Assembly: GCA_020627535.1 (NCBI GenBank)
Contig: JAHDGU010000001.1
Coordinates: forward strand, 164,670 to 228,669
DNA: 64,000 nt
Direction of reading: 5' to 3'
DNA from: Saprospiraceae bacterium
Lineage (GTDB): Bacteria; Bacteroidota; Bacteroidia; Chitinophagales; Saprospiraceae
Under the pieces are notes generated by a model. The model saw only the letters and a list, made by a program, of their open reading frames with translations. It was not told the origin of the DNA and ran no database searches. Position 1 is the stretch's first letter. Every line of letters begins with the position of its first letter. This document shows, one piece after another, positions 7,519 through 61,620 of the stretch. Position numbers and translations under genes: made by a program.

Positions 7519-10068
7519 TTGATGCTATCTTTAGAAGTAATGAGATACGCTATTGTTGCTATTTTTCTTGCCTATTTTTCTGACCTCAGTGCTCAAGAAG
7601 AACTGCTTGTTCATCGACTCAATCAAGAGCTTGCTTCAGGAGTTTGCTCAGATTTGCAGTTTGAAGTTTCTTCCTATTACCAGAATTCCAAGAGCAAGAT
7701 CCAATACTTGTATGCCTATCCCTTTATTCAGGGCATACGAATTGCCAATCACCAAGTCCAGTTGGTCGCTGACGAAAAAGGGCAGTTGATTCACAGTCAT
7801 CTTCTCACGTGTGATTGGGATGATTCTCAGTCAGAGCATCTGAGAGGTATGGAAGAGTCTCTGTGGCAATATATCCAGTCGAAAGAGTATGATGTCGATC
7901 TGAGCGCGTATTCAGCTCAGCTTTCACAGGCCAAGTGGGAAGTTGAGAATCCCTCGGAGATCCTAGAGGAGATGCAGGCAGAAAAGGTCTATTATTTGAC
8001 ATCGACAGAAGTACGAGACTCAGACGGGTCTAGTTCTTTGCAATTTTCATTGAGAGCGGCCTACGAAATCCATATTCGTGAAAGCTCAGGAAATCACTGG
8101 TGGAACGCGATCGTGAGTGCTAGCGATGACGAAATTCTGCAAGATCAAGATCTTGTCTTGCACTGTGAGTTTCATCATGTCAAGGCTCCGAATCATGATT
8201 GTGGCCATGATCATTCAGAAAATCTTCAGGCGACGATCCCCAATTCATACAGAGTTCTACCCCTATATGTGGAATCACCATCACACGGTGATTTTACCTT
8301 GGAGGTGGATCCAGCAGATTTGGACGTAAGTCCCCTAGGATGGCATGATGACGGTACGACGAGCTACACGGATACACGGGGCAACAATGTGGACGCCTAC
8401 GAAGATCGAGATGCCAACAATGCTCCTGGATACAGACCAGATGGTGGAGCAGACCTTGAGTTTGATTTCTCTTTTGATCCCAATAGCCCTCCGATCAACA
8501 GTGAGGATGCGATTATCACCAATCTCTTTTATTGGAACAATCTGATGCATGATGTATGGTATCGATATGGTTTTGATGAGGCATCAGGAAACTTCCAAGA
8601 GGACAATTTCGGCAATGGCGGGATAGCAGGAGACTATGTAAGAGCAGAAGCTCAAGATGGATCCGGTACCAATAATGCCAACTTCAGCACACCGACAGAT
8701 GGTGGCAATCCTAGGATGCAGATGTTCCTCTGGACTGGCGTGGCCCAGCTCGAGATTACCAATCCTTCGAGCAGTGCAGGATTCTACAACTACAGCGCAG
8801 CAGGATTTGGCCCGTCAATCAATAGCAATATATCTGGTAACATCATCCTAGCATATGATGCCAATCCGGACAGTTCGCAAGCTTGTGGTGCAATTGTAAA
8901 TAGCGCGGAGGTCAATGGAAATATCGCCTTGGTAGATCGTGGAGCCTGCTTTTTCGAGACCAAGGTCAACAATTGTGAAGCTGCTGGTGCGATCGCTGTC
9001 ATTGTATGTAATAATCAGCCGGGTGCAGGGACATTCGGTATGGGAGGTGTGGATACGATACCTGACCCAGGCATTCCGTCTATAATGATCAGCTACGAGG
9101 ATTGTCAGACTATCCGGATGGATCTTGACAATGGACTGGCCGGGACGATTGAGAGTGAATCCATTGCTTTTGACTCGGATCTAGACAATGGGATTATCTG
9201 CCACGAATACGGGCATGGCATCAGTATACGTTTGACGGGTGGTGCGGGGACCAATAGCTGTCTAGGCTCTGCCGAGCAAATGGGTGAAGGCTGGTCAGAT
9301 TACTTCGGTCTTGTGATGTCCCAAAAGCCTGGTCATACTCACGATCTGCCTCGTGGTATCGGTACCTATGTGCTCGGGCAGGATACACTGGGATCTGGAA
9401 TCAGGCCGGCAGAGTACTGTACGGATTTTGCAGTGAATGACTTTACCTACGACGATATCGACCAGGTCTCTCAGCCACATGGTGTAGGATTTGTCTGGTG
9501 TACCATGATCTGGGATATGACATGGGCACTAGAGAACCACTACGGCTATGAGCCCGATATCTTCAATGATTCTAGTAGTGCTGGGAATATTGTTGCTTAT
9601 CACCTAGTAATGGAAGGACTAAGACTACAGGCATGCAATCCTGGATTTGTGGATGGAAGAGACGCTATATTGATGGCAGATTCGATTCTCTACAACAAGG
9701 AACACGAATGCATCATATGGAATGCGTTTGCACGACGTGGACTAGGCTTTAGTGCAGATCAAGGCTCAGCGAATAATCGGAGCGACGGGGCGGAAGCTTT
9801 TGACCTGCCAACTGGCTGTGATGCTTTGAGCTATGAGGAGCTATTTGTCATTGGTCCCAATCCTTGTGATGGCGACAATCTAGTAATTGAAGATCCCATC
9901 ACGATGGATTCTACTTACAGAGCCAAGTTTTTGATAGAGAGTAATGCCACCATCGGCTCTGGTCTAGATATTATCTATCAAGCTGGGCAGTCGATAGAGC
10001 TAGATACCAATTTTACGGTAACTACTGGTGCCTTGTTTGAGGCGAGGATCGATCCTTGTCAGGATTGA
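7519..10068 (+). CDS. Secreted M36 (fungalysin-family) zinc metalloprotease with FTP propeptide, PA-domain insert and a probable T9SS C-terminal domain
   Basis: The signal peptide MRYAIVAIFLAYFSDLSAQ is present. The zinc motif HEYGHGISIRLTGG...MGEGWSD matches the fungalysin HEYTHG...RLTGG...GEGWSD pattern. A PA-like segment reads NGNIALVDRGACFFETKVNNCEAAGAIAVIVCNN. The last about 80 aa look like a Por secretion tail. Confidence 0.85.
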   Translation: MMLSLEVMRYAIVAIFLAYFSDLSAQEELLVHRLNQELASGVCSDLQFEVSSYYQNSKSKIQYLYAYPFIQGIRIANHQVQLVADEKGQLIHSHLLTCDWDDSQSEHLRGMEESLWQYIQSKEYDVDLSAYSAQLSQAKWEVENPSEILEEMQAEKVYYLTSTEVRDSDGSSSLQFSLRAAYEIHIRESSGNHWWNAIVSASDDEILQDQDLVLHCEFHHVKAPNHDCGHDHSENLQATIPNSYRVLPLYVESPSHGDFTLEVDPADLDVSPLGWHDDGTTSYTDTRGNNVDAYEDRDANNAPGYRPDGGADLEFDFSFDPNSPPINSEDAIITNLFYWNNLMHDVWYRYGFDEASGNFQEDNFGNGGIAGDYVRAEAQDGSGTNNANFSTPTDGGNPRMQMFLWTGVAQLEITNPSSSAGFYNYSAAGFGPSINSNISGNIILAYDANPDSSQACGAIVNSAEVNGNIALVDRGACFFETKVNNCEAAGAIAVIVCNNQPGAGTFGMGGVDTIPDPGIPSIMISYEDCQTIRMDLDNGLAGTIESESIAFDSDLDNGIICHEYGHGISIRLTGGAGTNSCLGSAEQMGEGWSDYFGLVMSQKPGHTHDLPRGIGTYVLGQDTLGSGIRPAEYCTDFAVNDFTYDDIDQVSQPHGVGFVWCTMIWDMTWALENHYGYEPDIFNDSSSAGNIVAYHLVMEGLRLQACNPGFVDGRDAILMADSILYNKEHECIIWNAFARRGLGFSADQGSANNRSDGAEAFDLPTGCDALSYEELFVIGPNPCDGDNLVIEDPITMDSTYRAKFLIESNATIGSGLDIIYQAGQSIELDTNFTVTTGALFEARIDPCQD

Positions 10069-12597: not shown

Positions 12598-15264
12598 TCA
12601 CTCCACCTTCACGATCTTCTGCACACAAAGTGCACTATTGCCAGGGTCATACACCTTCACGAAGAACAATCCATTGCCCAGTAGTTCTGTATTGATATTG
12701 ACCTCTGTTCCTACATTGGGGAGCTCTTGGATGAGTGTACCACTCGCATCCAGTATTTGAAGTCGATATGATGGAAGATCTCCTTGGATCCTGAAGTAGT
12801 TGTCCACAGGATTGGGGAAGACTTCGATGCAGCTAATTGTCGCCTCTATCTGTCTCGAACTGGTAGCAACTTCACTGCAATCATAATCTCCACTGAGTGC
12901 ACCGTAGACGACAGCTGCTGTGACACTGTTTTGGTTGATGGTAAACTCGCCGGTGAGAGGACTTGGGCGCTGTTCGAAGAATCGCTCATGTCCTGGCCAC
13001 TCTTCGATGGCAGGATATACATTTTGATCAGGCCAGTGATGCTCCCAGGGACCGACATTGAAGAGTCCTCCACGTCTCCATGGACCATATGGTACAATAC
13101 CGGCTTTGATTTCGCCTTCTCCCGTAGCCCAGCTATCGAGATGCAGCAGACCTTGAGGGCTTTTTTCGCCGATACCAGTGATCCAAGTCATACCTAGAGG
13201 ATTGGTCCCGAGGAAGTAGTCTGCCGTAGTGTGTATGTACTTGAGGTAGTCAGCTGCCTTGGTAGGATCAGTGCCTTGCAGTATGGCGGACATAAACACT
13301 GCTTCCGCGACAAATGGCGTCGTGCCGTGCCCTACGAGCATAGGGAAGTAGTGGTTCCCTCCCCAGCGACAAGCGCGGAGATCAACATTGTCAAGAATAA
13401 GGAAATCCGCAGTCTGTATCATTTTGTCGCTGACGATCGTGCGTTGACTGGCATCTTGGTTGTCTGCATCGGTCATGAGGTAGATCAGAGCACCGTAGGC
13501 CTGCTCACCTTGGACATTTTCCCAAAACTCGAGCCCCGCCTGATCCCAGCTCTGCTCAAAATCTTGCTGATAGAAATCATTTTCTGTGAGTCTGTAGAGA
13601 GCCGCGGAGGCGAAGCTTCGCTGCCAGATCATCTCGTAGATATGACAAGCAAAGTCAGGGTCATATTGCGCATTGGCCCAGGCATATGCATCGATGGCTT
13701 CTTGCTCCCAGTCGATCTCCTCCGGATCAGTCCAGCCATTAGTCTCTAGGAGGTAGGCGATCTGCGCGGCCACGCCTGCGTAGTAGTAGCTCATGATCGG
13801 ATCAGGAGCGGATACGACCCAGATGCGATCTGTATCTTCCCAGCTGCCTCGGATAATATCATCATCGCCGAGATCGTAGCCCCAGAGATCACCAAATATC
13901 CGTCCACCTGGCACACCTCCTGTCGTGTAGCCTTTCTCCTCTGTTTCTTGCTTGAGATGATAGTAGAATCTCGGCAACCATCTCGCTTCATCAAAGACAT
14001 CTGGTAGTCCATTGCCACTCTCTGCGATCTGTAGCTGGCCATCGACGAAGTTGTCTCCGTACAACTCTAGCAGTATCAGTAGCTCCACAGGGACTTCCAT
14101 ATGTCTGATGTACGCGTCCCAGTCGCCAGCGTCCTGGTACCACCCAGCAGTCTCGATATCTCCGAGGATGCCAGCATCCCAAGTGGCCTTGTCATCCTCT
14201 GAGGCATCCTCGTCTGTCACATCGCAGATAGATACGTCACTATACTTCAGCTGCCCTGCAAATCCGGGTGTCACAGCAGGATTGTGTGGCGCTGGACGTG
14301 TGGCTTCCGTGTGCGGATGATCCAGAGCAATTCCACTGCGCTGATTGTAGAGGCCCTTCATCACCAGTTCGAATGCAGGCCTGAGACCATTGCAAGCAAG
14401 GTCAAACTCATGAGATCTGCCGATACCATCAACCACGAGGTAGTAGGATCCAGGCGTATTGTAAGCACTAAAATCACACTCGTATACCTCAGCACTATTG
14501 AAATTTTGATTCGGGGTTTCATCGCTATCATCGACAAATGTCTCTTGCGTCATCTCATCCTTGCGAAAAGTCAGATTTCCTGTGAAGACTGCATCGCCTG
14601 ATGTCGCATCGATAAGACGAAATTCATTGCCAGCGTAGCTGCTAAGATCCAACTTGCCGCCGTCTCCCATCCAATGATATACGTAGGCATACTTGAGCTC
14701 TGCATTGGTAGAGTAGGCTAGATTGTTGACGTGTATAGCAGGAGAAAGGAAGCTGTTTTCATCATATTTTAAGATCCATTCTGTCTGATCTGGACTGATG
14801 GCTTGATCTATGTTGATCTCGTAGGTCTTACCCGGTTCTAGTGCAATAGGTAGCTCCAGATACAGCCAGTGTTCCTTGGCATGATCAGGCTCTTGATTGG
14901 CACATCCCCAGACACCATAGTAGTCCAGGAGCTCCCAGCCTTGACACACATCTAGGAATTCTGTAGGCTTGCTTTTTCGCGAAAGCGATACTGGACTCTC
15001 CCCACTGCCATAAGCTGCATCATCAGGCGAACTGATCATGTAATTGTTGAGGTCTTCGGCAATGGGTATATCCAGCAGATCTACGAAGATCTCTCCACTA
15101 TTTTTAGGTTCACCGGCTTTGGGCTGTAACACATAGCCTTCATCGACATGGATCAAGAGGATCTTATCTGTGAGCATGGTCAGCTCCACCTCACTTTGGG
15201 CCATGATCTGGTCGGTCAGGCAGGTCAATAGGATAAGGACTAGAGCAGATTGTAGGACTTTCAT
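12598..15264 (-). CDS. Glycoside hydrolase family 9-like enzyme with N-terminal Ig-like (CelD_N) domain and T9SS C-terminal sorting domain
   Basis: A signal peptide is present. The Ig-like segment reads YYLVVDGIGRSHEFDL. The GH9-type motif is AGWYQDAGDWD. The C-terminus VFPNPVDNYFRIQ...GLFFVKVYD...VQKIVKVE has the Por_Secre_tail pattern. The ORF-track start at 15294 is probably an N-terminal over-extension; MKVLQSALVLILL is the likelier start. Confidence 0.6.
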   Translation of the reverse strand: MKVLQSALVLILLTCLTDQIMAQSEVELTMLTDKILLIHVDEGYVLQPKAGEPKNSGEIFVDLLDIPIAEDLNNYMISSPDDAAYGSGESPVSLSRKSKPTEFLDVCQGWELLDYYGVWGCANQEPDHAKEHWLYLELPIALEPGKTYEINIDQAISPDQTEWILKYDENSFLSPAIHVNNLAYSTNAELKYAYVYHWMGDGGKLDLSSYAGNEFRLIDATSGDAVFTGNLTFRKDEMTQETFVDDSDETPNQNFNSAEVYECDFSAYNTPGSYYLVVDGIGRSHEFDLACNGLRPAFELVMKGLYNQRSGIALDHPHTEATRPAPHNPAVTPGFAGQLKYSDVSICDVTDEDASEDDKATWDAGILGDIETAGWYQDAGDWDAYIRHMEVPVELLILLELYGDNFVDGQLQIAESGNGLPDVFDEARWLPRFYYHLKQETEEKGYTTGGVPGGRIFGDLWGYDLGDDDIIRGSWEDTDRIWVVSAPDPIMSYYYAGVAAQIAYLLETNGWTDPEEIDWEQEAIDAYAWANAQYDPDFACHIYEMIWQRSFASAALYRLTENDFYQQDFEQSWDQAGLEFWENVQGEQAYGALIYLMTDADNQDASQRTIVSDKMIQTADFLILDNVDLRACRWGGNHYFPMLVGHGTTPFVAEAVFMSAILQGTDPTKAADYLKYIHTTADYFLGTNPLGMTWITGIGEKSPQGLLHLDSWATGEGEIKAGIVPYGPWRRGGLFNVGPWEHHWPDQNVYPAIEEWPGHERFFEQRPSPLTGEFTINQNSVTAAVVYGALSGDYDCSEVATSSRQIEATISCIEVFPNPVDNYFRIQGDLPSYRLQILDASGTLIQELPNVGTEVNINTELLGNGLFFVKVYDPGNSALCVQKIVKVE

Positions 15265-15406
15265 TGTTGCAAATGATTTGAACTTCACTTGCATGACGCA
15301 TTGCTCAGATCATACCCTACGACAAGTCAGGAAAGATTTATTTTTTGATGGAGACCTTGCCTCAAGGATTGATCTAGGCAAAGTAAAACTGCGAAAATGC
15401 TCTGGG

Positions 15407-16196: not shown

Positions 16197-18485
16197 ATGA
16201 TGTATTCTAGATTCAATCTCATTCTTGCCTTATCACTCTTGACCATTGGCCTTTCTGCACAGGCTATCGACGACGCTGAGATCCGTGGTGACGGTATCGT
16301 CGTGCCTGCTGTGGATCGGCTGGCGGTCGTTGCCCCATCCACTGGTCAGCTCGTCTTCGATGTCAATACGCTCAGCTACTGGATGCACGATGGTAATGTG
16401 TGGCGGGCTGTAGGAGACAATATTGTCGGTAACATGATTCAAGACGCGGATGGAAGCACCAGTGTGCAGACAGAACCTGGCGGACTAGAGCAAGTCCTGA
16501 TCGAGGTCGATGGTCGAGATCGGTGGAGGTTTTTGGGACATGCGCTAGAGCCTCTCATTCCCAGTAGTTCCATATTCATGGGACAGTCAGCAGGTGCCGC
16601 TAGTTCTGATACAGCTTACAACAATGTCGGCATCGGAAATTTCTCGCTGATCTCGGTCAGCTCAGGAAGATGGAATGTAGGCATCGGCCATAATGCCCTG
16701 AGCGACAATACATCAGGAGAAAAAAATGTTGCCATCGGTTCTTCCGCAATGCTTGGCAACAAGGCGAGCTCCGACAATGTCGCCATAGGTAATAGTGCAT
16801 TACTCTCGGTCGACTCCTCACAGTTCAATGTCGCTATCGGCTCTTATGGACTCCATAGCCTAGACAAAGGTCTTCGCAATGTAGCCATCGGAACCTCTAG
16901 CCTCTATGAATCCGAGACAGGAAAGCTCAACACCTCCATCGGCTATGCTGCAGGACACAATACCCTCGGAGATGGCAATGTATTTCTCGGCCACGAGGCT
17001 GGTTTCAATGAACTAGGAAGTAACAAACTCTACATCGCCAACTCCAATGCCGATAGCGCCGATGCGCTGATCTACGGTGACTTTTCCAGTTCTGAACTCT
17101 ACATCAATGGAGATCTGCAGTCTGATCAGTTCACCACAGATCAGATCACGACCACTACCATAGACGTCGACGACAAACTCACCGTCAAGAGCGACTCTCG
17201 CCTGTTTGGTCATCTCTTTCTACACGCCCTCCAGGGCCTAGGGCAAAGTGGCACAGCCTATATCCAAGCCAGAGATCACACTGCTGCTACGAGTGTTGGT
17301 CTACAGTTTCGCGTGACGGACAATGGTGTGGTTGATGACGCCCTCGCGATCAATAAAGATGGTCAAGTCCTGTTTCAGAACAAGGAGATCTACTTCGGTA
17401 CGAGTCTCTTGATTCACACCACAGGTAGCAACAACTTCTTTGCAGGATTTGCTGCTGCCCCTTCAGCCTCGGGTTCCTCCAATACAGCGGTCGGTTCGCA
17501 AGCAGCTCAGAGCCTTTCTACGGGCTCTCAGAATTCAGCAATCGGCCGGCTTGCAGGTCAGGACCTCTCCAGCGGATTTGGAAATACACTATTGGGTTTT
17601 TCTGCGGGTAAAGACTTGACGACCACGACTGGCAACACCATGATCGGTAACAATGCAGGTGCTTCGATCAATAACGGGGGCTCCAATACCATCATCGGTA
17701 GCCAAGCAGGATGGAACACCAGCTTTTCGTCAAGCAACACCTTCATAGGATTTGATGCGGGCAGGTACACCGCTGGAAGCAAAAACACATTCCTTGGGAC
17801 CAATGCTGGTGAGACCACTTCTGGTGGTCCCAGCTACGATAATAGCATAGCTATCGGATACAGTGCTGTGGCCAATTGCCATAACTGTGCAGTGATCGGC
17901 AATGATGGATCAGAGGATGTTAATCTCGGTATCGGTATCTCGGCTCCTCAGTCCGTCATCCATGTCAAGCAGCGCAACTCAGGCACAGATCGCGGTATCC
18001 GTATAGAAGACACCGATGGGACATACTGGAATACCTACATCGACGCATCTAATGATTACAACTTCGCTCACGACGGCACACTTCGTGCTTACATACAGGA
18101 TGGTGCTGGTGCCTTTGTCATCACTTCTGATCGCAGCGTCAAGACAGCCATCAGCTCTGTCGGAGACGTATTGCCACGGGTGATGGGGCTTTCGCCCAAA
18201 TGGTACAGATACAACAACATGTCACCCGATCAACCCAAGGTCATGGGCTTCATCGCACAAGAAGTGGAGGAGCAGTTTCCTGGCATCGTACGCCAAAAAG
18301 GAAAGCTCAAGACCCTCGCATACGATGACTTTGCCATCATCAGCATCAAAGCCATCCAAGAACTCAATGACAAGGTCAACGAAAAGGATTCAAGGATCAC
18401 AGAACTAGAAGAGCAAAATGAGGAATTGGCCAAGCGACTAGAGAGATTGGAAGCGTTGGTACTCAGTGATCCATTGACTGACTAA
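16197..18485 (+). CDS. Secreted tail-fiber-like protein: YadA/Hep_Hag-like NxAIG repeat region plus a C-terminal peptidase S74 intramolecular-chaperone auto-processing domain
   Basis: The Sec signal peptide is MMYSRFNLILALSLLTIGLSAQA. There are more than 20 repeats of N(V/T)AIG..AL. The C-terminal SDRSVKTAISSVGDVLPRVMGLSPKWYRY...VMGFIAQEVEEQFPGIV...LAYDDFAIISIKAIQELNDKV...ELEEQN matches the endosialidase / tail-spike CIMCD pattern, including the Ser-x4-Lys dyad. Confidence 0.7.
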   Translation: MMYSRFNLILALSLLTIGLSAQAIDDAEIRGDGIVVPAVDRLAVVAPSTGQLVFDVNTLSYWMHDGNVWRAVGDNIVGNMIQDADGSTSVQTEPGGLEQVLIEVDGRDRWRFLGHALEPLIPSSSIFMGQSAGAASSDTAYNNVGIGNFSLISVSSGRWNVGIGHNALSDNTSGEKNVAIGSSAMLGNKASSDNVAIGNSALLSVDSSQFNVAIGSYGLHSLDKGLRNVAIGTSSLYESETGKLNTSIGYAAGHNTLGDGNVFLGHEAGFNELGSNKLYIANSNADSADALIYGDFSSSELYINGDLQSDQFTTDQITTTTIDVDDKLTVKSDSRLFGHLFLHALQGLGQSGTAYIQARDHTAATSVGLQFRVTDNGVVDDALAINKDGQVLFQNKEIYFGTSLLIHTTGSNNFFAGFAAAPSASGSSNTAVGSQAAQSLSTGSQNSAIGRLAGQDLSSGFGNTLLGFSAGKDLTTTTGNTMIGNNAGASINNGGSNTIIGSQAGWNTSFSSSNTFIGFDAGRYTAGSKNTFLGTNAGETTSGGPSYDNSIAIGYSAVANCHNCAVIGNDGSEDVNLGIGISAPQSVIHVKQRNSGTDRGIRIEDTDGTYWNTYIDASNDYNFAHDGTLRAYIQDGAGAFVITSDRSVKTAISSVGDVLPRVMGLSPKWYRYNNMSPDQPKVMGFIAQEVEEQFPGIVRQKGKLKTLAYDDFAIISIKAIQELNDKVNEKDSRITELEEQNEELAKRLERLEALVLSDPLTD

Positions 18486-21940: not shown

Positions 21941-22570
21941 ATGAAGCTACACATCATAGAAGACAATCTCAAGATCAGAGCTCACCTCGAGACCTTTCTT
22001 GGCCATCAAGAGGATATCGCCTGTGTGCAAAGCCACACAAGTGTAGAGTTTTTCTTGAGTGCTGTGGATTCTGGTCAAGCCAAGCCAGATGTGATTCTAT
22101 TGGATATCGGGCTTCCTGGGATGTCTGGTGTAGAAGGTATCCCGGAGATCACTCAGCGACTTCCCGAGACAGATATCATCATGCTCACCACCTATGAGGA
22201 GGAAGAAGTCATACTCAATGCGCTCTGTGCCGGTGCTCATGCCTATCTCAGCAAGAAGAGTAGTCTGCAAGAGATCCATACTGCGATCAAGGTGGTACGG
22301 GCTGGAGGAAGCTATATGTCGCCCAATATTGCTCGCCAGATCGTGAGACATTTTGGCGGAAGCCGTACACCTAAAAAAGCCGAAATCCTCACCGAACGCC
22401 AGCTCAAAGTCCTCAAACTACTTGTGGATGGATTGACCTACGGAGCGATTGCCAAAGAGCTTTTTATTTCTGCAGAGACGGTCAAGACGCATGTCAAGAA
22501 CATCTACAAGAGTCTCCACGTGAGCAACAAGGCCGAAGCCATCCAGAAGTATATGCGAGGAGAGATCTAG
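21941..22570 (+). CDS. NarL/FixJ-family response regulator (REC plus LuxR HTH), paralogous to the regulator at 3784..4425
   Basis: The receiver motif LLDIGLPGMSG...IIMLTTYEE and the HTH TERQLKVLKLLVDGLTYGAIAKELFISAETVKTHVKNIYKSL are present. It is divergent from the kinase at 18805..21876. Confidence 0.9.
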   Translation: MKLHIIEDNLKIRAHLETFLGHQEDIACVQSHTSVEFFLSAVDSGQAKPDVILLDIGLPGMSGVEGIPEITQRLPETDIIMLTTYEEEEVILNALCAGAHAYLSKKSSLQEIHTAIKVVRAGGSYMSPNIARQIVRHFGGSRTPKKAEILTERQLKVLKLLVDGLTYGAIAKELFISAETVKTHVKNIYKSLHVSNKAEAIQKYMRGEI

Positions 22571-35740: not shown

Positions 35741-36643
35741 GTGAATCTAAAGAAATCTGTCGGAATTTGGCTATCTGCCTTGAGACTGAGGACGATACCT
35801 CTTGCGATCAGTAGCATTCTGATGGGTAGTTTTCTCGCTGCGCGAACTGGAGATTTTCGCTGGGATGTGATGATCCTGGCTTGCCTGACCGCGATCTTAC
35901 TGCAATTGCTCTCAAATCTCGCCAATGACTATGGAGATAGCATTCACGGTGCGGATAGCGACTTGCGAAAAGGACCATCACGTGCTGTCCAATCAGGCAT
36001 GATCACGGCAGATCGTATGAAAAGAGCAATCTACCTCTTTGCTGCACTGGCGCTCGTCAGTGGTGTGACATTAGTAATCATGGCATCCATTACGGTGAAG
36101 ATGAAGCTCCTTTTCCTTGGGCTCGGTTTAGTTGCTATCGCGGCTGCCTACTACTACACCAATGGGGCTCGACCATACGGATACGCTGGGCTAGGAGATA
36201 TCAGTGTTTTCTTATTTTTTGGACTATTGGGAGTGATGGGTAGTTACTATTTGCACACTGCACGATGGGATCAGGCAGTGATCTTGCCAGCCGTCTCAGT
36301 AGCAGCTTTCTCTGTCGGTGTGCTCAATGTGAATAACATCCGAGATATGATCTCCGATCAGAAAGCTGGGAAGTACAGTGTACCCGTCAGACTAGGCTAT
36401 ACTGGAGCGCGAGTCTATCACTCACTCCTCATATTGACAGGTATATTGGCGGCGATGATCTATAGTGGTGCTGCACAAGGCGTCTGGACTACGTACCTGT
36501 ACGCTGCTCTTTTACCGATATTTTTTCTGCATCTGCGTGCCATTTGGTCGAAAGACCGTGAACAGCTAGATCCACAGCTCAAGCAGCTCGCCTTGCTGAC
36601 TTTCAGTTTTGTCATCTTATTTGGTGTAGGGCTATTAGTCTAG
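35741..36643 (+). CDS. menA: 1,4-dihydroxy-2-naphthoate polyprenyltransferase (UbiA superfamily)
   Basis: The UbiA motif NLANDYGDSIHGADSD is present, with 8-9 transmembrane helices. Confidence 0.85.
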   Translation: MNLKKSVGIWLSALRLRTIPLAISSILMGSFLAARTGDFRWDVMILACLTAILLQLLSNLANDYGDSIHGADSDLRKGPSRAVQSGMITADRMKRAIYLFAALALVSGVTLVIMASITVKMKLLFLGLGLVAIAAAYYYTNGARPYGYAGLGDISVFLFFGLLGVMGSYYLHTARWDQAVILPAVSVAAFSVGVLNVNNIRDMISDQKAGKYSVPVRLGYTGARVYHSLLILTGILAAMIYSGAAQGVWTTYLYAALLPIFFLHLRAIWSKDREQLDPQLKQLALLTFSFVILFGVGLLV

Positions 36644-37845
36644 CCCTTTGTGACTGCAGTGTAGATATACACTCCACAAAATGCTATGCCTGTCACAATG
36701 ATACCCGTGATAAAAATAGTATAGCAGATCCGTAGTCTTGAATACTTGAAGCCAAGACTCTTGCCCAGATAAAATAGATCCATCAAGGCGGCATTGTCCA
36801 AAACGACGTTGTCCTCAAAGATGGAGAGCATACCTTCCTTGAATTTGTTGTAGTCCATACGGAAGAAGTTGCCAAAGAAGAATAGATTGAGATTTTTTTG
36901 TGCCTCTTTAGATATCTCTGATCGCCCTGTCATGGCGATGGGTCGAGTGACCATCGTAGCATAAAACATGGTCGTCAAGCAAGTGAGGGTCAAGGGTATG
37001 ATGCCAAAGAGCAACAGGCTGTTTTCATTGACATCATCTGCCAATATCGGTAGTGCCACCGATAAGATGATGGCATTGATACTGAGCATGATATTTGCCT
37101 TGTTGTCTGCGATGGCGGTAAGATCAATCTGATTGCGCATCGTAGTCTTGAACATCATCTGAGCGCTCTTCTTGTCAAGAATGGCATCTACATCTGTGGC
37201 AGGTTTTTTCGCCATTTTCTTCTTCTTTTTTTTCTTTTTACTGCTGCCATCAAGTTGAGCCTCTTGATTTTGGATCTTGAGCAAGTGCTCGGCCTTTGAA
37301 GGATTGTAGATTTCTTGCGCTGAACGGGTGTAATACTTGTGTCCGAGGAGAAAATTAAGATTAAGCTCTCGCCATCCTTCATCGGTAAACTGATGACCGA
37401 GTGCCGACCACTCTTCGCGGAGGCGATGATTGCATGGGCCAAATCTCTCTGTGCCCAGATGGGACAGGTCAGCATCACACATGATCTGAGATAGGTGATC
37501 TTCCGGCTCTTTGCCCATGCGTGTTGATTCTATGATCTTATGGATCTGCGGTAGTATTGCTGCTTCCAAATGGTGTGACTTGACATAGGCGGTTAAAATA
37601 TTTTTGCTATGTGTCTCGTGATCTTCTGCCTGTACCGTAAATCCTGTGTCATGAAAGAGCACAGCTAGCTCCAGGAGCCTGAGCTGGTCTTCCTGAAGCC
37701 CTTCTTTGGCCGCCAGATTTCTGGCAGCCTCCAGCACATTGGCAGTGTGTCGCCAGTCGTGATAGATGATCGCAGGATCAAGTTGATCACTCAAAAGCTT
37801 TTTGACGTAAGTCTCGGCTTGGGATATGTCCTGCCTTGTCAGCAT
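36640..37845 (-). CDS. HD-domain phosphohydrolase fused through a poly-Lys linker to a C-terminal multi-pass membrane domain
   Basis: The N-terminal HD motif is ...IYHDWRHTANVLEAAR...LAVLFHDTGF.... It is followed by SSKKKKKKKKMAKK and then 3-4 transmembrane helices (IMLSINAIILSVALPIL, LLLFGIIPLTLTCLTTMFYATMV, ICYTIFITGIIVTGIAFCGVYIY). Confidence 0.7.
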   Translation of the reverse strand: MLTRQDISQAETYVKKLLSDQLDPAIIYHDWRHTANVLEAARNLAAKEGLQEDQLRLLELAVLFHDTGFTVQAEDHETHSKNILTAYVKSHHLEAAILPQIHKIIESTRMGKEPEDHLSQIMCDADLSHLGTERFGPCNHRLREEWSALGHQFTDEGWRELNLNFLLGHKYYTRSAQEIYNPSKAEHLLKIQNQEAQLDGSSKKKKKKKKMAKKPATDVDAILDKKSAQMMFKTTMRNQIDLTAIADNKANIMLSINAIILSVALPILADDVNENSLLLFGIIPLTLTCLTTMFYATMVTRPIAMTGRSEISKEAQKNLNLFFFGNFFRMDYNKFKEGMLSIFEDNVVLDNAALMDLFYLGKSLGFKYSRLRICYTIFITGIIVTGIAFCGVYIYTAVTKG

Positions 37846-55440: not shown

Positions 55441-56736
55441 ATGAGTGCTTTGCAGCGCGAGTATCAAGAGACCATTGATTACCTTTTTAACACGATTCCT
55501 GCTTTTTTCAGAGCTGGAAAGACTGCCGTCAAAAAGGATCTCAGGAATATCAGACTCCTTTGTGATCGTCTAGGCGACCCACAGTCAGATCTTAAGTGCA
55601 TTCATATTGCTGGTACCAATGGAAAGGGCTCCGTGAGCCATATTCTAGCTAGTCTTTATCAAGCCTCAGGGCTCAAAGTAGGGCTCTACACCTCACCGCA
55701 TTATGTAGACTTCAGGGAGCGCATCAAGATCAATGGTGAGTGCTGTGATCAGCAATTTGTGATCGATTTTGTGTCTGCACATCGTGATCTTTTTGAGGAA
55801 ATCATTCCGTCATTTTTTGAAGTGACCGTGGCCATGGCCTTTCAGTATTTTAAAGAGCAATCAGTAGATCTTGCGATCATCGAAACAGGGCTAGGTGGAC
55901 GACTAGATAGCACCAATATCATTGAGAGTCAACAACAGATCATTACCACCATCGGCTTCGATCATATGGATTTTCTAGGAAACACGCTAGAGGAGATCGC
56001 TGGTGAAAAGGCGGGCATCATCAAGACAGGTGGATCAGTGGTCATAGGGGAAACTATCGTGGATAGTGCTCGAGAAGTCATTTTGGCGAAAGCCTCTGAG
56101 AAGAGAGCCGTGGTGGAAGCCACAGAGAGTGTGGTAGATGTGACGCTGAGTGATGCGGGGGAAATCCAGATCTCGACAGGAGGAGTAAGCTGCACTTGCC
56201 CATGTGACCTCTCAGCGAGCTACCAAGCTGATAATTTGAAGACAGCATTGGCAGCCTACATGATAGCCAATGAACCTTGGGAGGAGTCTGTCCTGGTGAG
56301 TATCTTGAGGCGTGGTCTGGCTGACATATCTCGTCGCACAGGCATGATCGGACGCTGGCAGCAGATACAAGATTCTCCTGTGGTGATTGTCGATGGCGCT
56401 CACAACGAACAGGCTTTTGAGCATCTAGTCAAGGAGATCGAGCGCAGAGGCCCCGACCACTGTATCGTCCTCCTCGGCTTCAGTGCCGACAAGGATGTGC
56501 AAGCACTGATTGATATGCTGCCAGCCGTCAAGCGTAAATTATTCACCTCAGCAGCAATGAGTCGTGCCATGAGCAAGGAACAATTTCAGGAGATTTCTGG
56601 CTCAGGAGACTTTGAGATGATAGAGAATTCTTCTCTTGCCTTATCTCAGGCAATTGCTTTAGCCGATGAGGATGATGTTGTTATCTGTAGTGGCAGCATT
56701 TATCTCGTGGGAGAGCTGCTGGCTAGTAGAGTATGA
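55441..56736 (+). CDS. folC: Bifunctional folylpolyglutamate synthase / dihydrofolate synthase
   Basis: The P-loop is IHIAGTNGKGSV. The Mur-ligase middle and C-terminal domains are present. Confidence 0.9.
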   Translation: MSALQREYQETIDYLFNTIPAFFRAGKTAVKKDLRNIRLLCDRLGDPQSDLKCIHIAGTNGKGSVSHILASLYQASGLKVGLYTSPHYVDFRERIKINGECCDQQFVIDFVSAHRDLFEEIIPSFFEVTVAMAFQYFKEQSVDLAIIETGLGGRLDSTNIIESQQQIITTIGFDHMDFLGNTLEEIAGEKAGIIKTGGSVVIGETIVDSAREVILAKASEKRAVVEATESVVDVTLSDAGEIQISTGGVSCTCPCDLSASYQADNLKTALAAYMIANEPWEESVLVSILRRGLADISRRTGMIGRWQQIQDSPVVIVDGAHNEQAFEHLVKEIERRGPDHCIVLLGFSADKDVQALIDMLPAVKRKLFTSAAMSRAMSKEQFQEISGSGDFEMIENSSLALSQAIALADEDDVVICSGSIYLVGELLASRV

Positions 56737-59458
56737 GCGGAAACTGCTGTCGCGTTTCGCCGTCCAGTAATTCAAGAATGTAGTATCCCGAAGGCAAATG
56801 CGCAAGATCTTTCGTAGTCCTGAACATTCTACCTATCTCTGACATCTCTGTCCATCTTTCAAGGCTTCTTCCTTGAAGATCCCAGATTGTCAGTTGCACC
56901 AACTCACTCTTGGCATCAGGATACCGAATTTGAATATACCCTTGTGTTGGATTTGGAAAGGCCGTTAGTCGTTCAAAATTGGGAAATTCCTCTGTATAGA
57001 CTACGTTACTGACCAGGTGCATTCGATCCTCAGCGATACCCTTGATGAAGTAGAAGCTCTCTCCAAAAAGTGGCTTATTGTCTCTGGCGGTTCCTTCGCT
57101 ACCAGAGAATCCATCCAGCGCATCATAGAATTTGAAAGGCTCATCTTTAGGTGCTCTCCAGAGCTCAACCTGAGTGATTCCTACACTAGATCCGATGAGC
57201 TCAAATGGCAGATCAATGTAGGTGTTCTTAACGTCAGCGCTCAGAACGAGACTTCGATCTTCATCGAGCAAGCAATTTGGGTAAATCTCCACTTCATCTA
57301 TGGTAGACAGACCTTGTGGATCTGTCACAGTCAATCTGATGCGATACCAAAATGTCTCGAGATTACAAGGCGTAGGTAAAAGGTCGGCCACTGGTGACGT
57401 CGCTCGGATGACCGGTTCCTCATGAAAGTGAGTATTGTGATGAAAAAAGACTTGCCACTCGTATGTCAGTTCGTCTTCGAGGCTTTGAGCATCTGATACC
57501 TCTGCTCTCAGCTTGTAGAAATGGTCATCATCCTGGTCATAGATGTCTCCGTCGAGAGGAGCGGTAATCCTGACTTGTGGAGGCGAGTTGTCAAGGTGGA
57601 TAGTCGCTGTTGCCGTATCTGAGCGATCAGCACTGTCAGTGACGACCAACTGCACATCTTGTGTCGATGGGCCGTTTGCTGCACTAGTGAAGGTCCTCTG
57701 GAGCGATACCTCGGTCGATCCGCTTCCATCTGGAAGTAGCCACTCATAAGTCAATGGGAGATCTAGAGGATGAGAGCTGCCACTAGCATCAAGATCGATG
57801 GTCAGTGGGCTTTCGCCAAAATGAGTTGAGAGCTTGATCTCTGCTCTTGGAGGCTGATCTGTGCCAAAAGAGATGCGCACGATCGTGTCTTGATAAACCC
57901 TTGTATAGTAAATGTCTTCGGTGATGGGATTGATATTGACCGTGACGACATCTGGCGTAGAAGTGGCGAAGCTGTCAATCTTTGTCACGCGGAATATCTC
58001 ATCCTCTTCTTCAATCACGACTGAGTGGATAAAGCCGTAGAAGTCCGAGAAGATCACGCGCCCTTGATACTCCTCTGGGAGCTTGCTGCCCTGATAGACG
58101 AAGCTAGGGATGCAAGAGAAGCCTGCCATGGTAAAGCCATCAATGATCGCCTCTTCATCCTCGAGATTATAACTGATATCATTGCCATTATCATCGAAAG
58201 AGCCTGCAATGGTTCTCGGCGGATTATTCCAGTTGATATTGGCATAGTTGAACTGAGGTCTAGTATGGATGTGCTTGTACTCCTCTGATATCTCGATTTC
58301 TGGATTGCATTGGTTGGGGAATGCTCTAGGCGAAAAGAGCTTGGGTTGGCGGACGAGTTCATCATAGCTATGAAGGCGCTGTGTACAGGAGGCTCCGTCA
58401 TAGAGTGGGTTGGGCGCAAGGTAATTGGTCGTATCTAGCGAACGGAATGTCCAGCTGAATCCTTGGCCTTCATATTTGGGCCAGCCGAGATTTTCTCCCG
58501 GGCCATGGATGATATTGAATTCTTCATACTGCCAGCTTCCTACATCTCCCATGATGAGAGTACCAGGGCGACCGGCATCGGGATTTGTAGATCCAGTGTT
58601 CGGGATCTTGATGAACTTAAAGGGATTGCGCATGCCCATCGCATACACCTTTGATCTCCATGAGTCTGGCTTTTCTGCGTCATACCAGGGATTGCTAGGA
58701 ATACCCAAGCCAGTTTCTGGATCAAAGCGTAGGATCTTTCCGCTGGGCGAGTCAATATTTTGAGCGCGCCAAGCACCGACATTGAGCTCAGGTTTGAGGA
58801 TGCCATCATCGATTGCCTGCGCATACCAAGTCTCTGGTGAAGAGCCCACATCGCCTGACTGGAAGCTGGCAGCATCTCCTACAGAGAGAAGGAGAGTGCC
58901 ATCAGTCCCAAATACTAGGCTACCCATGCCATGGGATATCATCAGGATGGGGATTTGATCTGTGATCTCTTTACCGAGGATGATTTTGCGACTATTGGGG
59001 ACAAGTGTGCTGAAGTTGGTGGTAGGATCGAGTGTGTATCGTGTGACTCTGCCGATCGTAGCTTCACTGTTTTGATTCACTTCTGGGTCATATTCAGCCG
59101 TACCGAAGTAGAGCAAGTGGTGGCGATCAACGACATAGGCTAGATAGATATCTCCACTTGTCTCAAAGTCTGGAGCAAGGGCCAAACTTGTAAGACCGTG
59201 ATCAGCATAGGCAGCGACCTCTTCCGATATATCCAGGACCGGCTCGGATGTGATCTTTCCATTGAGAGTCATGATGTAGACCTTTCCATCTTTGGAAAAG
59301 ACATAGCCTTGACCATTATGGTCAAATTCGATTCCCAGAGGATTGGAAACCTCATGTTCTATTACCTCATGAAAAAAGCCTTCCGGCAACTCTGGACTTT
59401 GTGACCAAAGACCCCAAGATGAAATGAATAGCGTAGCAATCAGCACATATCGAGACAT
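56723..59458 (-). CDS. Secreted PQQ-dependent sugar-dehydrogenase-like (GSDH beta-propeller) protein with PKD-like domains and a T9SS C-terminal sorting domain
   Basis: The signal peptide is MSRYVLIATLFISSWGLWSQS. The N-terminal GSDH-like region reads LGIEFDHNGQGYVFSKDGKVYIM...GLTSLALAPDF. Two PKD/Ig-like segments sit in the middle. The C-terminus FPNPTQGYIQIRY...SGYYILELLDG...FPLILY has the Por tail pattern. Confidence 0.65.
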   Translation of the reverse strand: MSRYVLIATLFISSWGLWSQSPELPEGFFHEVIEHEVSNPLGIEFDHNGQGYVFSKDGKVYIMTLNGKITSEPVLDISEEVAAYADHGLTSLALAPDFETSGDIYLAYVVDRHHLLYFGTAEYDPEVNQNSEATIGRVTRYTLDPTTNFSTLVPNSRKIILGKEITDQIPILMISHGMGSLVFGTDGTLLLSVGDAASFQSGDVGSSPETWYAQAIDDGILKPELNVGAWRAQNIDSPSGKILRFDPETGLGIPSNPWYDAEKPDSWRSKVYAMGMRNPFKFIKIPNTGSTNPDAGRPGTLIMGDVGSWQYEEFNIIHGPGENLGWPKYEGQGFSWTFRSLDTTNYLAPNPLYDGASCTQRLHSYDELVRQPKLFSPRAFPNQCNPEIEISEEYKHIHTRPQFNYANINWNNPPRTIAGSFDDNGNDISYNLEDEEAIIDGFTMAGFSCIPSFVYQGSKLPEEYQGRVIFSDFYGFIHSVVIEEEDEIFRVTKIDSFATSTPDVVTVNINPITEDIYYTRVYQDTIVRISFGTDQPPRAEIKLSTHFGESPLTIDLDASGSSHPLDLPLTYEWLLPDGSGSTEVSLQRTFTSAANGPSTQDVQLVVTDSADRSDTATATIHLDNSPPQVRITAPLDGDIYDQDDDHFYKLRAEVSDAQSLEDELTYEWQVFFHHNTHFHEEPVIRATSPVADLLPTPCNLETFWYRIRLTVTDPQGLSTIDEVEIYPNCLLDEDRSLVLSADVKNTYIDLPFELIGSSVGITQVELWRAPKDEPFKFYDALDGFSGSEGTARDNKPLFGESFYFIKGIAEDRMHLVSNVVYTEEFPNFERLTAFPNPTQGYIQIRYPDAKSELVQLTIWDLQGRSLERWTEMSEIGRMFRTTKDLAHLPSGYYILELLDGETRQQFPLILY

Positions 59459-59468
59459 GGACTCAAAG

Positions 59469-60410
59469 CTAAGGAGTATCCACATCTTGAGCTACTTCTT
59501 CTGCTTCCATCAGGCGATAAGTGTCTTGGTTGACAATGATGCTGGTATTGAGCTCAAAGCCGATCAGGAGTATCAAGGAATTGAGCTGAAACCACACCAT
59601 GATCAAGACCAGAGATCCGATCGACCCGTAGATCTTATTCCATGCCCCAAATTGATTGGCTATGTAGCTCAGAATCAAAGTGCACAGTATCGACAGTATT
59701 GTGGCGAGTATCGTCCCTGGACTGAAGAAACTCACCTTGCGACGGAAAGATGGCCCCAATTTATAGATGACACTGATGATGCTGTAGAAGAGAAAGAGAA
59801 TGGCCATCCACTTGACCACTGTCAGCATATTCACAGCAAATCGAGAAAGATTGAGCAAGTCAAGGGCAGCCAGTGTCAGTCGATTGCCAAGGAGAATAAG
59901 TATGACGCTGGTTGCACCTAGCAAGAAAAGAAAGAAGGTCAAGAGTATAGCAATACCGCGCTTCTTAAGACCTGATCGACGCTTGAATGAGATCTTGTAC
60001 TCCTTGTTGAAGCCTCGCATCATATTGATCATTCCATTGCTGCTGAAAAATAGTGCCGCCAAAAAACCTATGCTCAGGAGACCACCTCTTTTGATATTAT
60101 TGAGTTCACTGACGAGGTCAGTAATGAATATTTCAAACTCATCAGGGAAAAACTCTAGAAGCTTAAATTCCAAAAAGCTCTCGGCGCTACTATACGGGAT
60201 ATACGTAATCAGAGTGATCCCCACGATGATCAGCGGAAACAGAGAAATGAAAAAACTGAAAGCCATCGAGTTAGCCCTCATCATGACATTGTCCTTTTTG
60301 ATCTCTTGCCAGATGAAGCTCATGACCTCGTAGATGCTTAAGCCTTTGAAGCCAGCAAAACTCCTTGACTTACTCCATTGGATGAGGGCGGATCTGAGAC
60401 TGGATATCAT
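59469..60410 (-). CDS. YihY / virulence factor BrkB family membrane protein
   Basis: Six transmembrane segments and the YihY-like N-terminus (...WQEIKKDNVMMRANSMAFSFFISLFP...) are present. Confidence 0.8.
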   Translation of the reverse strand: MISSLRSALIQWSKSRSFAGFKGLSIYEVMSFIWQEIKKDNVMMRANSMAFSFFISLFPLIIVGITLITYIPYSSAESFLEFKLLEFFPDEFEIFITDLVSELNNIKRGGLLSIGFLAALFFSSNGMINMMRGFNKEYKISFKRRSGLKKRGIAILLTFFLFLLGATSVILILLGNRLTLAALDLLNLSRFAVNMLTVVKWMAILFLFYSIISVIYKLGPSFRRKVSFFSPGTILATILSILCTLILSYIANQFGAWNKIYGSIGSLVLIMVWFQLNSLILLIGFELNTSIIVNQDTYRLMEAEEVAQDVDTP

Positions 60411-60839: not shown

Positions 60840-60930
60840 AATGCTCTATCTTGGGTACAAAGATCAGTACCTTCTGGAACCACCAAGGATGTTTTGATGT
60901 AAGATTAATTTTGTAGTCGAATCTACACAG

Positions 60931-61620
60931 ATGTCAGGCATACTCAATAAGATGAAAGGTCTCTTTGTCACAGAGACCGGGGGAACCACTTCAAAAAGCA
61001 AATCGACCAAGGACGAAGCTAAGCCTGAAGAGGAAGTTGAACAAGTATCTCCACAGTCACGCCCATCAGAGGTCACACTAGAGATTGCCGATGTAGAAGG
61101 GCAAGTTGATGACAAGTTTCTTGAAATCTTGCTCAATGCGATGAATGAGGCCAATACCCCGGGTTTTGACTACCTCGAGTATAAGAGATCTCTTGTGAGC
61201 TTGCGCGAAATGAACATGGATGAGCCCACTCGCTATAAGGCGGCCTATGCAACAGCAGAAGCGATGGGGGCCAACCCCGCAGCACTACAAAACAGTGCAA
61301 AGTACTATCTCGATATACTCGGCAAAGAAGATGCGAAGTTTCTGGACGCACTCAAGGCTCAGTCGGTAAAGCGGCTATCTGGTGCTCAGGAGGCCATACA
61401 AGATCTTGAATCTGGAATTCAAGATAAGATCTCTCAGATCGAAAGACTCTCTCAGGAGATCGAAGAGGCAAAATCTGAGCTTTCGCTCAAAAAACAAGAG
61501 CTAGAAGCCAGTCAAGAAAAGCTTGGAAGAACCAAAGCAAACTTTGAAGCCTCCTACTCAAATCTCAGAGATCAGATTGCAAGTGATCTCCAAAACATAT
61601 CAAAATACCTCGCCGGCTAA
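60931..61620 (+). CDS. Hypothetical coiled-coil protein
   Basis: A basic and acidic N-terminal tail is followed by a long heptad-rich C-terminal half. No assignable domain. Confidence 0.4.
   Translation: MSGILNKMKGLFVTETGGTTSKSKSTKDEAKPEEEVEQVSPQSRPSEVTLEIADVEGQVDDKFLEILLNAMNEANTPGFDYLEYKRSLVSLREMNMDEPTRYKAAYATAEAMGANPAALQNSAKYYLDILGKEDAKFLDALKAQSVKRLSGAQEAIQDLESGIQDKISQIERLSQEIEEAKSELSLKKQELEASQEKLGRTKANFEASYSNLRDQIASDLQNISKYLAG

Follow-up and report, generated by a model that had tools for sequence, protein, structure and literature searches.

The window analysed here, a stretch of 64,000 nucleotides of contig JAHDGU010000001.1 from a Saprospiraceae bacterium, carries one gene whose product resembles a phage tail fibre. 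Its open reading frame (ORF) was confirmed at 16197..18485 (+ strand), with a product of 762 aa. From the N- to the C-terminus, the protein is laid out as a predicted signal peptide, a small all-beta domain, two blocks of a 17-residue repeat separated by a lineage-specific segment, a variable tip and an S74 intramolecular chaperone domain (Table 1). A profile search found no other member of the family within the window. Here, we propose that the gene probably encodes the precursor of a secreted, homotrimeric, phage-tail-fibre-like fibre that the cell makes for its own use. The protein is no rare oddity, as it belongs to a huge and already named family whose architecture has been characterised in Bdellovibrio. 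The ORF is real, and its product is a further member of an established kind, not new in kind. A database record (P0001) is identical to the window protein but starts at the second Met.

Results

The C-terminal domain is an S74 chaperone by profile, by conserved residues and by predicted structure. Peptidase_S74 (PF13884) is the one significant Pfam family in the protein. Its match spans aa 644-698 and profile positions 1-57 of 58, and its 35.8 bits (E = 1e-8) exceed the gathering score of 22. The first-pass annotation, a reading of the sequence alone, had already assigned this domain to the C-terminal 130 aa; the assignment stands, as do the motifs SDRSVK, GFIAQEV and IKAIQELN on which it was based, but counted from the predicted cleavage site the domain is 119 aa long. 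Among 79 chaperone domains taken from the best homologues, Lys649 is invariant, Ser644 is retained by 78 and Asp645 by 76, and Gly684, Ala687, Gln688, Pro695 and Tyr709 are conserved in 74 to 79. The domain is terminal in most of the family, ending at most 44 residues from the C-terminus in 75 of 78 relatives. A profile (A2) built on 17 chaperone domains finds the tip of the phage S16 long tail fibre gp37 (PDB 6f45, 9e-19), the ICA domain of MyRF (7dc3, 3e-13), a phage tail fibre (8jov, 1e-12), the GA-1 neck appendage chaperone in its released form (3gud, 1e-4), whose chain starts at the aligned Ser, and T5 pb1 (8hqz, 2e-4).

In the AlphaFold2 (AF2) model of the monomer, the chaperone region has a predicted local distance difference test score (pLDDT) of 82-94 and contains a long helix at aa 709-757, which is predicted to form a trimeric coiled coil. 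Foldseek aligns the modelled C-terminal domain with 7dc3 at a probability of 1.00 and a target TM-score of 0.63 over 141 columns. Weak residual Pfam and NCBIfam matches (SlyX, prefoldin and others) all lie on the terminal helix and reflect its coiled-coil composition. Catalytic residues and chaperone fold are both in place, and by analogy with other S74 domains the protein would be cut at T643|S644 and its chaperone released. The predicted products are the signal peptide (aa 1-23), a mature fibre of 620 residues and 64.2 kDa (aa 24-643) and a 13.5 kDa chaperone (aa 644-762).

The shaft upstream of the chaperone consists of regular 17-residue turns. The motif N[VT]AIG occurs in 4 copies and the looser NxxIG in 16, or about 18-19 when degenerate turns are included, which is fewer than the more than 20 N(V/T)AIG repeats first reported. 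The repeats fall into two blocks, aa 125-277 and aa 411-575, with a spacing of 17 residues in each. A profile (A3) of 16 family copies of module 1 has a mean column identity of 52%, and its N and G are invariant at every 17th column. The AF2 model shows both solenoid modules with good confidence as regular turns; module 1 has a pLDDT of 84-94 and two short strands in every turn. The module is found in all 230 top relatives, in up to 25 copies per protein, and the segment between the two modules has phmmer matches only in the window protein and its ortholog P0002 among these 230. Searching the PDB with the whole single sequence returned a spurious T-cell receptor alpha chain as the sole match, and a profile was needed instead; with A3 at E <= 10, the search gave no trimeric autotransporter adhesin head and nothing significant, the weak hits being confined to hexapeptide-repeat left-handed helices.

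These turns had been read as YadA-like head repeats, a reading that did not survive: YadA_head (PF05658, formerly Hep_Hag) gives no match in the fibre protein even at E <= 1, and the period is 17 residues. The same model does detect genuine copies in relative P0064, at approximately aa 900-990, and the 17-mer modules of that protein lie apart from them at aa 152-820. Because they occupy separate segments in P0064, YadA_head repeats and 17-mer modules are distinct building blocks of the family.

The 17-mer repeat is itself a common module of phage tail fibres. The PHROG tail spike family phrog_4636 matches aa 112-487 (2e-36) and the tail fibre family phrog_5481 matches aa 441-751 (5e-12). By tblastn, the module is present in 95 phage records, the hosts including Pelagibacter, Roseobacter, cyanobacteria, E. 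coli, Bacillus and Flavobacterium. The protein gp52 of Pelagibacter phage HTVC111P, annotated as a tail fibre of 811 aa, aligns with aa 46-729 of the query and shares the chaperone signature in the form ...TSDLRDK...GFKAQDI... Because the PHROG matches, the 95 phage records and the gp52 alignment together take in the shaft as well as the chaperone, the two are jointly phage-tail-fibre-like and the whole fibre is a phage-like unit.

What is specific to the cellular protein is confined to its signal peptide and the small beta domain at its N-terminus. At the N-terminus, MMYSRFNLILALSLLTIGLSAQA|IDD, a basic n-region is followed by a hydrophobic stretch and an A-x-A site, and the best 11-residue window reaches a mean Kyte-Doolittle hydropathy of 2.5. 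By these sequence rules and hydropathy, which were the only means applied, a Sec-type signal peptide is plausible, in agreement with the first-pass annotation. The region has no Cys, so the protein is not a lipoprotein. A comparable hydrophobic N-terminus is present in 68 of the 74 relatives that have the N-terminal domain and a Met start.

The domain that follows has a match to aa 23-124 in 80 of the 230 best homologues, and 39 of 40 near-full-length matches begin between residues 22 and 80 of the relative, immediately after its signal peptide. Relatives are annotated with Pfam PF26696 (PTL_trimer). We infer that PF26696 models this N-terminal domain, because the annotation tracks the domain motif G-hhh-PR, which is present in 71 of 80 proteins annotated with PF26696 and in 0 of 40 lacking it. 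The window protein has a divergent copy, with GIVVPAV in place of G-hhh-PR, which a profile of eight canonical copies (A5) matches with 40.9 bits and E = 5e-12. A5 does not match the N-terminus of HTVC111P gp52, no PHROG covers aa 1-111, and a fold search of the domain against the PDB returned no match. The domain may anchor the fibre at the cell envelope.

At the other end of the shaft, the predicted tip opens with NLGIGISAPQSVIH at aa 576-589, which by eye fits the capping-loop motif V-G-G/N-pi-x-x-P-x-x-x-L in the motif list of Caulton et al. 2024 (PMC10769870). The tip is variable, being matched in 18 of 230 relatives. Its monomer pLDDT is 31-43, a range that would be expected of an intertwined trimer.

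The surroundings of the gene are cellular. The ORFs of at least 150 aa scanned by Pfam across the 64 kb were each either cellular or without a family match; the scan returned no phage structural, replication, packaging, lysis or integrase/integration family, and no tRNA genes were found in the window. The sole 'viral' name, Viral_helicase1, came up as a secondary hit to a superfamily-1 helicase of cellular type. Housekeeping genes include those for MsrB, PhzF, TyrRS, GroEL, CoaE, MiaB, proline dehydrogenase, ExbB and a FolC-like ligase, and two-component systems are present as well. The GC content is level across the fibre gene, with no anomaly. We rejected a prophage on the whole-window Pfam scan and the tRNA search, and the earlier description of a chromosomal context free of other phage genes is borne out over the whole 64 kb, where no prophage remnant was found. 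A promoter and terminator scan near the gene gave nothing above shuffled expectation, using a sigma-70 consensus that is unsuited to Bacteroidota.

Three observations concern other genes of the window. Two proteins with C-terminal sorting domains of the type IX secretion system (T9SS), a GH9/CelD_N glycosidase and a GSDH + PKD protein (Table 1), mark the host as a T9SS-bearing member of the Bacteroidota. A 401-aa protein (36640-37845, - strand) combines an HD domain with PycTM, the transmembrane effector domain of Pycsar anti-phage systems. An ORF without a Pfam family at 60898-61617 (+ strand) gives a weak A2 match (E = 0.013, 10 bits) that probably reflects coiled-coil composition.

Table 1 Parts of the fibre gene and selected neighbouring genes, in positions of the window
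Feature	Residues	Position	Strand	Basis or remark
Complete ORF (762 codons + stop), fibre protein precursor	1-762	16197..18485	+	80.3 kDa, pI 4.65
Predicted Sec (signal peptidase I) signal peptide, cleaved after A-Q-A	1-23	16197..16265	+	Sequence inspection, hydropathy
N-terminal all-beta domain, putative cell-proximal base/anchor	24-124	16266..16568	+	Divergent copy of the domain behind the signal peptide of relatives
Beta-solenoid module 1: nine 17-residue NxxIG turns, then family cap NKLYIANSNADSADALIYGDFSSSELYINGDL	125-306	16569..17114	+	Repeat spacing, family alignment, AF2
Inter-module segment, lineage-specific	307-410	17115..17426	+	phmmer; AF2 confidence low
Beta-solenoid module 2: nine to ten 17-residue turns, without NKLYI cap	411-575	17427..17921	+	Repeat spacing, AF2
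Predicted distal tip of mature fibre, starting with capping-loop motif NLGIGISAPQSVIH	576-643	17922..18125	+	
C-terminal intramolecular chaperone / Peptidase_S74 (119 aa)	644-762	18126..18482	+	Pfam, profile, Foldseek
Catalytic motif S644-D-R-S-V-K649 (SDxxxK), predicted scissile bond T643|S644	644-649	18126..18143	+	
M36 metallopeptidase, fungalysin-type, 849 aa, inserted PA domain		7519-10068	+	E = 3e-137
GH9/CelD_N glycosidase with T9SS C-terminal sorting domain		12598-15294	-	
HisKA_3 kinase, 1,023 aa		18805-21876	-	Convergent with fibre gene
LuxR-type response regulator		21941-22570	+	
GSDH + PKD protein with T9SS C-terminal sorting domain		56723-59485	-	

The family is very large. A word-indexed search gave more than 2,432 homologues, and when representatives at 50% identity were searched exhaustively, the numbers were 53,787 at E <= 0.001, 24,126 at <= 1e-10 and 2,615 at <= 1e-30. 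Relatives reach 5,785 aa, with the module repeated up to approximately 25 times, and NCBI names the members 'tail fiber domain-containing protein'. Scanning species-representative genomes with the canonical N-domain yielded 326 candidate stretches, of which 283 were confirmed and 77 loci kept (L006-L082). Nearly all of these belong to Saprospiraceae, Lewinellaceae and other Bacteroidota, and the metagenome-assembled genome (MAG) SRP135972_co1_130 alone supplies 12. The 77 loci hold 119 N-domain ORFs, up to 4 per 12 kb, and 70 chaperone ORFs (~60%). In Saprospiraceae MAGs, the N-terminal-domain subfamily has undergone a strong expansion.

The ortholog P0002, 59-63% identical and located on a MAG contig, has a HisKA_3 kinase and a LuxR regulator behind it as well (locus L002, 7115-10804). 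Housekeeping genes also surround three relatives of greater distance, so that four related loci are cellular, and kinases adjoin two other relatives. We considered a regulatory tie to the adjacent two-component system as a general feature and rejected it, given that receiver-domain ORFs occur in 8 of 77 family loci, or 1 per 92 kb, which is no commoner than in the window.

Other loci illustrate how members of the family vary. On a Saprospiraceae chromosome, locus L004 (6547-16013) has three family genes in tandem. There, a 485-aa ORF with a PTL_trimer annotation only overlaps by 4 nt the gene of P0074, a 951-aa protein that bears S74 and has no PF26696 annotation, and the pair may be a split or frameshifted fibre gene. 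They are followed by a paralog of 1,575 aa, matched weakly by YadA_head, and by a gene that gives a faint match to the T9SS sorting domain. In a few relatives, P0099 and two others, a T9SS sorting domain is placed after the S74 chaperone; P0099 itself lies at locus L005, 8001-10283. In such proteins, self-cleavage would strip the chaperone and the secretion tag as one piece, and it may be asked in which order folding, export and cleavage would then take place.

Discussion

At the level of the gene, the result is mainly an annotation correction: the product is predicted to be a self-cleaving secreted fibre of phage-fibre type, not a chimera of YadA and S74. The first-pass annotation had proposed a trimeric surface fibre that borrowed a phage-type folding module. 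What is best supported of this is a cell-encoded, Sec-exported fibre with a phage-type chaperone; the YadA half of the chimera falls away, as the whole shaft is phage-like.

We envisage the following sequence of events. The 762-aa precursor would be exported via Sec and its 23-residue signal peptide, as judged from the N-terminal sequence, removed. Three chains would join through the 119-residue S74 domain, the long terminal helix giving rise to a coiled coil, and the domain would template the folding of what lies upstream, namely the tip (aa 576-643) and the two solenoid modules of 17-residue NxxIG turns. Once the trimer had formed, the Ser644/Lys649 dyad would cut the T643-S644 bond. The cut would free the 13.5 kDa chaperone and leave a mature fibre of 620 residues and 64 kDa per chain, with the variable tip exposed as its binding end. 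From trimerisation to tip exposure, these steps would follow the mechanism established in endosialidase K1F, T5 pb1, MyRF and Bdellovibrio Bd3182.

The closest experimental precedent for a cellular fibre of this layout comes from Caulton et al. 2024 (Nat Microbiol, PMC10769870), who described 21 mosaic adhesive trimer (MAT) fibres in Bdellovibrio bacteriovorus. In all of them, the signal peptide is followed by a conserved N-terminal domain of approximately 130 aa, rich in beta structure and without a PDB homologue, and then by a long trimeric fibre, and 13 of the 21 end in an S74 domain with SDxxxK, the named catalytic motif. One of them, Bd3182, self-cleaves at S782, the Ser of SDxxxK, and S782A blocks the cleavage. 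Members were detected on the predator cell surface, the route there being left unidentified in that work. The same study defined the capping-loop motif for MAT fibres and MyRF (supplementary Fig. 18), and its Table S3 lists FCB-group (Bacteroidota) examples, among them a protein from Saprospiraceae and one from Dokdonia labelled 'S74-like'. By likeness to MAT fibres, the fibre described here would be displayed at the surface. By the same analogy, it is likely to serve in adhering to other cells or particles or in recognising them, a role that fits the many N-domain paralogs per Saprospiraceae genome.

Several points weigh against a trimeric, self-processing surface fibre. Trimerisation, cleavage and surface location are all steps that we infer. 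In the monomer AF2 model, pLDDT falls below 50 at aa 308-386 and 559-640. The N-domain is divergent, and the precomputed Pfam record of the protein gives PF13884 alone, not PF26696. A Pfam scan of the fibre protein found neither a T9SS C-terminal sorting domain (Por_Secre_tail) nor an autotransporter barrel, and the protein has no lipobox, so that the fibre could remain periplasmic or exit in vesicles.

This last possibility, a periplasmic or vesicle-borne fibre that is never surface-displayed, agrees with the Sec signal peptide as the sole export signal, and the outer-membrane vesicle proteome of Tannerella forsythia lists a short 'tail fiber domain-containing protein' (PMC10682907). We nevertheless regard it as unlikely: the analogous MAT fibres, which are also Sec-only, do reach the surface (PMC10769870), and the T9SS sorting domain behind the chaperone of some relatives indicates an extracellular destination for the family. 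A fibre that reaches the outside might also act as an enzyme, as tailspike-like polysaccharide depolymerases or lyases do, instead of as an adhesin. This is quite unlikely here, given that the modules are thin, regular 17-residue turns that have no long loops or insertions for a catalytic groove and that no glycoside-hydrolase or lyase family was matched by Pfam. Structural matches of the solenoid, at 4-14% identity and often with a high root-mean-square deviation, mix right- and left-handed folds and indicate a generic solenoid only.

A leftover or domesticated phage gene would account well for the phage side of the protein, which from aa 112 on matches PHROG tail spikes and fibres, is represented in 95 phage records and aligns almost end to end with the tail fibre of a Pelagibacter phage. 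The fibre could then belong to a decayed prophage, or to a tailocin or contractile injection system encoded elsewhere, and be assembled in the cytoplasm. However, an N-terminal signal peptide is ill-suited to cytoplasmic assembly onto a tail, the N-domain is missing both from the PHROGs and from the phage homologue, neither phage structural or packaging genes nor an integrase or tRNA gene turned up in the 64 kb, and the GC content is level across the fibre gene. The ortholog locus is partly syntenic and cellular, further family loci are cellular as well, and N-domain ORFs number up to 4 per 12-kb locus, which together make this origin of the gene very unlikely. A trimeric-autotransporter-like adhesin with a YadA-type head stalk is highly improbable in view of the missing PF05658 match and the 17-residue period. 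The idea draws on the resemblance of NxAIG to the NSVAIG motif of the YadA head, reportedly described by Nummelin and co-workers in 2004, on the label 'trimeric autotransporter adhesin' that JGI gives some relatives and on the real YadA_head matches of P0064.

A secreted, phage-tail-fibre-like trimer made for the use of the cell hence remains the reading that we favour, and its main prediction is directly testable, as it specifies both the cleavage site (T643|S644) and the fragment sizes (64 + 13.5 kDa). The wider interest lies in the scale of the family. The module is present in tens of thousands of protein clusters, and the canonical N-domain is carried chiefly by proteins of Saprospiraceae and other Bacteroidota, whose genomes have many copies. 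Experimental work on such an architecture has been carried out in Bdellovibrio only, and our literature search found none on the Bacteroidota family, which makes the first-pass remark that these proteins are poorly characterised in Bacteroidetes a fair one. A more tentative proposal, and one we hold with some doubt, is that the fibre is part of a Bacteroidota counterpart of the MAT repertoire, in which dozens of tip-variable, self-processing paralogs per Saprospiraceae genome would recognise prey, partner filaments or particles and would both reach the surface and attach to it by a route dependent on the PF26696-type N-domain, not on T9SS, lipidation or a barrel. The questions raised are those of the ligands of the fibre, of a Sec-only route to the Bacteroidota surface and of the attachment partner of the N-domain; a short member with two modules is a convenient protein with which to approach them.

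The concept of a cell-encoded, self-processing fibre is already established experimentally in Bdellovibrio and has been noted for Bacteroidota. The protein resembles the S74 subgroup of MAT fibres in being cell-encoded and in the order of its parts, with a signal peptide, a beta-rich N-domain, a long fibre and a capping loop before an S74 domain with SDxxxK. Both are multigene families with variable tips in which approximately 60% of members end in S74 (13 of 21 MAT fibres; 70 chaperone against 119 N-domain ORFs in our 77 loci). The N-domains are likened by position and description only, that of the present protein being approximately 100 aa, all-beta and without a PDB fold match, compared with approximately 130 aa in MAT fibres. 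The two differ in phylum and may differ in the shaft, here made up of 17-residue NxxIG turns in solenoid modules with NKLYI...LIYG(D/E)F as their cap, and the distance from capping loop to catalytic Ser is approximately 55 residues, compared with approximately 15-17 in Bd3182 and MyRF.

With phage fibres and spikes (K1F endosialidase, T5 pb1 4uw8/8hqz, GA-1 3gud and S16 gp37 6f45), the protein shares the S74 chaperone with its Ser/Lys motif and the shaft of 17-residue repeats, and its closest whole-length match is HTVC111P gp52. Phage fibres lack a signal peptide and begin with an N-terminus for attachment to the tail, whereas the window protein has a predicted Sec signal peptide, an N-domain related by profile to the putative PF26696 type and a cellular context. 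Compared with YadA-type adhesins, it has similar N-x-A-I-G-like turns and is presumably also a trimeric surface fibre, but it lacks a YadA_head match, a C-terminal barrel anchor and type Vc secretion, and its period is 17 residues and not the 14 of their left-handed parallel beta-roll. MYRF and MrfA of eukaryotes, whose ICA domain (7dc3) is the best structural match of the C-terminal domain, represent another cellular use of the phage chaperone, in which cleavage releases a DNA-binding trimer and not a fibre. The nearest kin are the Bacteroidota 'tail fiber domain-containing' proteins with PF26696 and PF13884, with which the window protein shares a homologous N-domain, the modules, the NKLYI...LIYG(D/E)F cap and the chaperone. 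It departs from the typical members of that family in being short, with two modules, in an N-domain that falls below the Pfam threshold and in its lineage-specific insert of approximately 100 residues.

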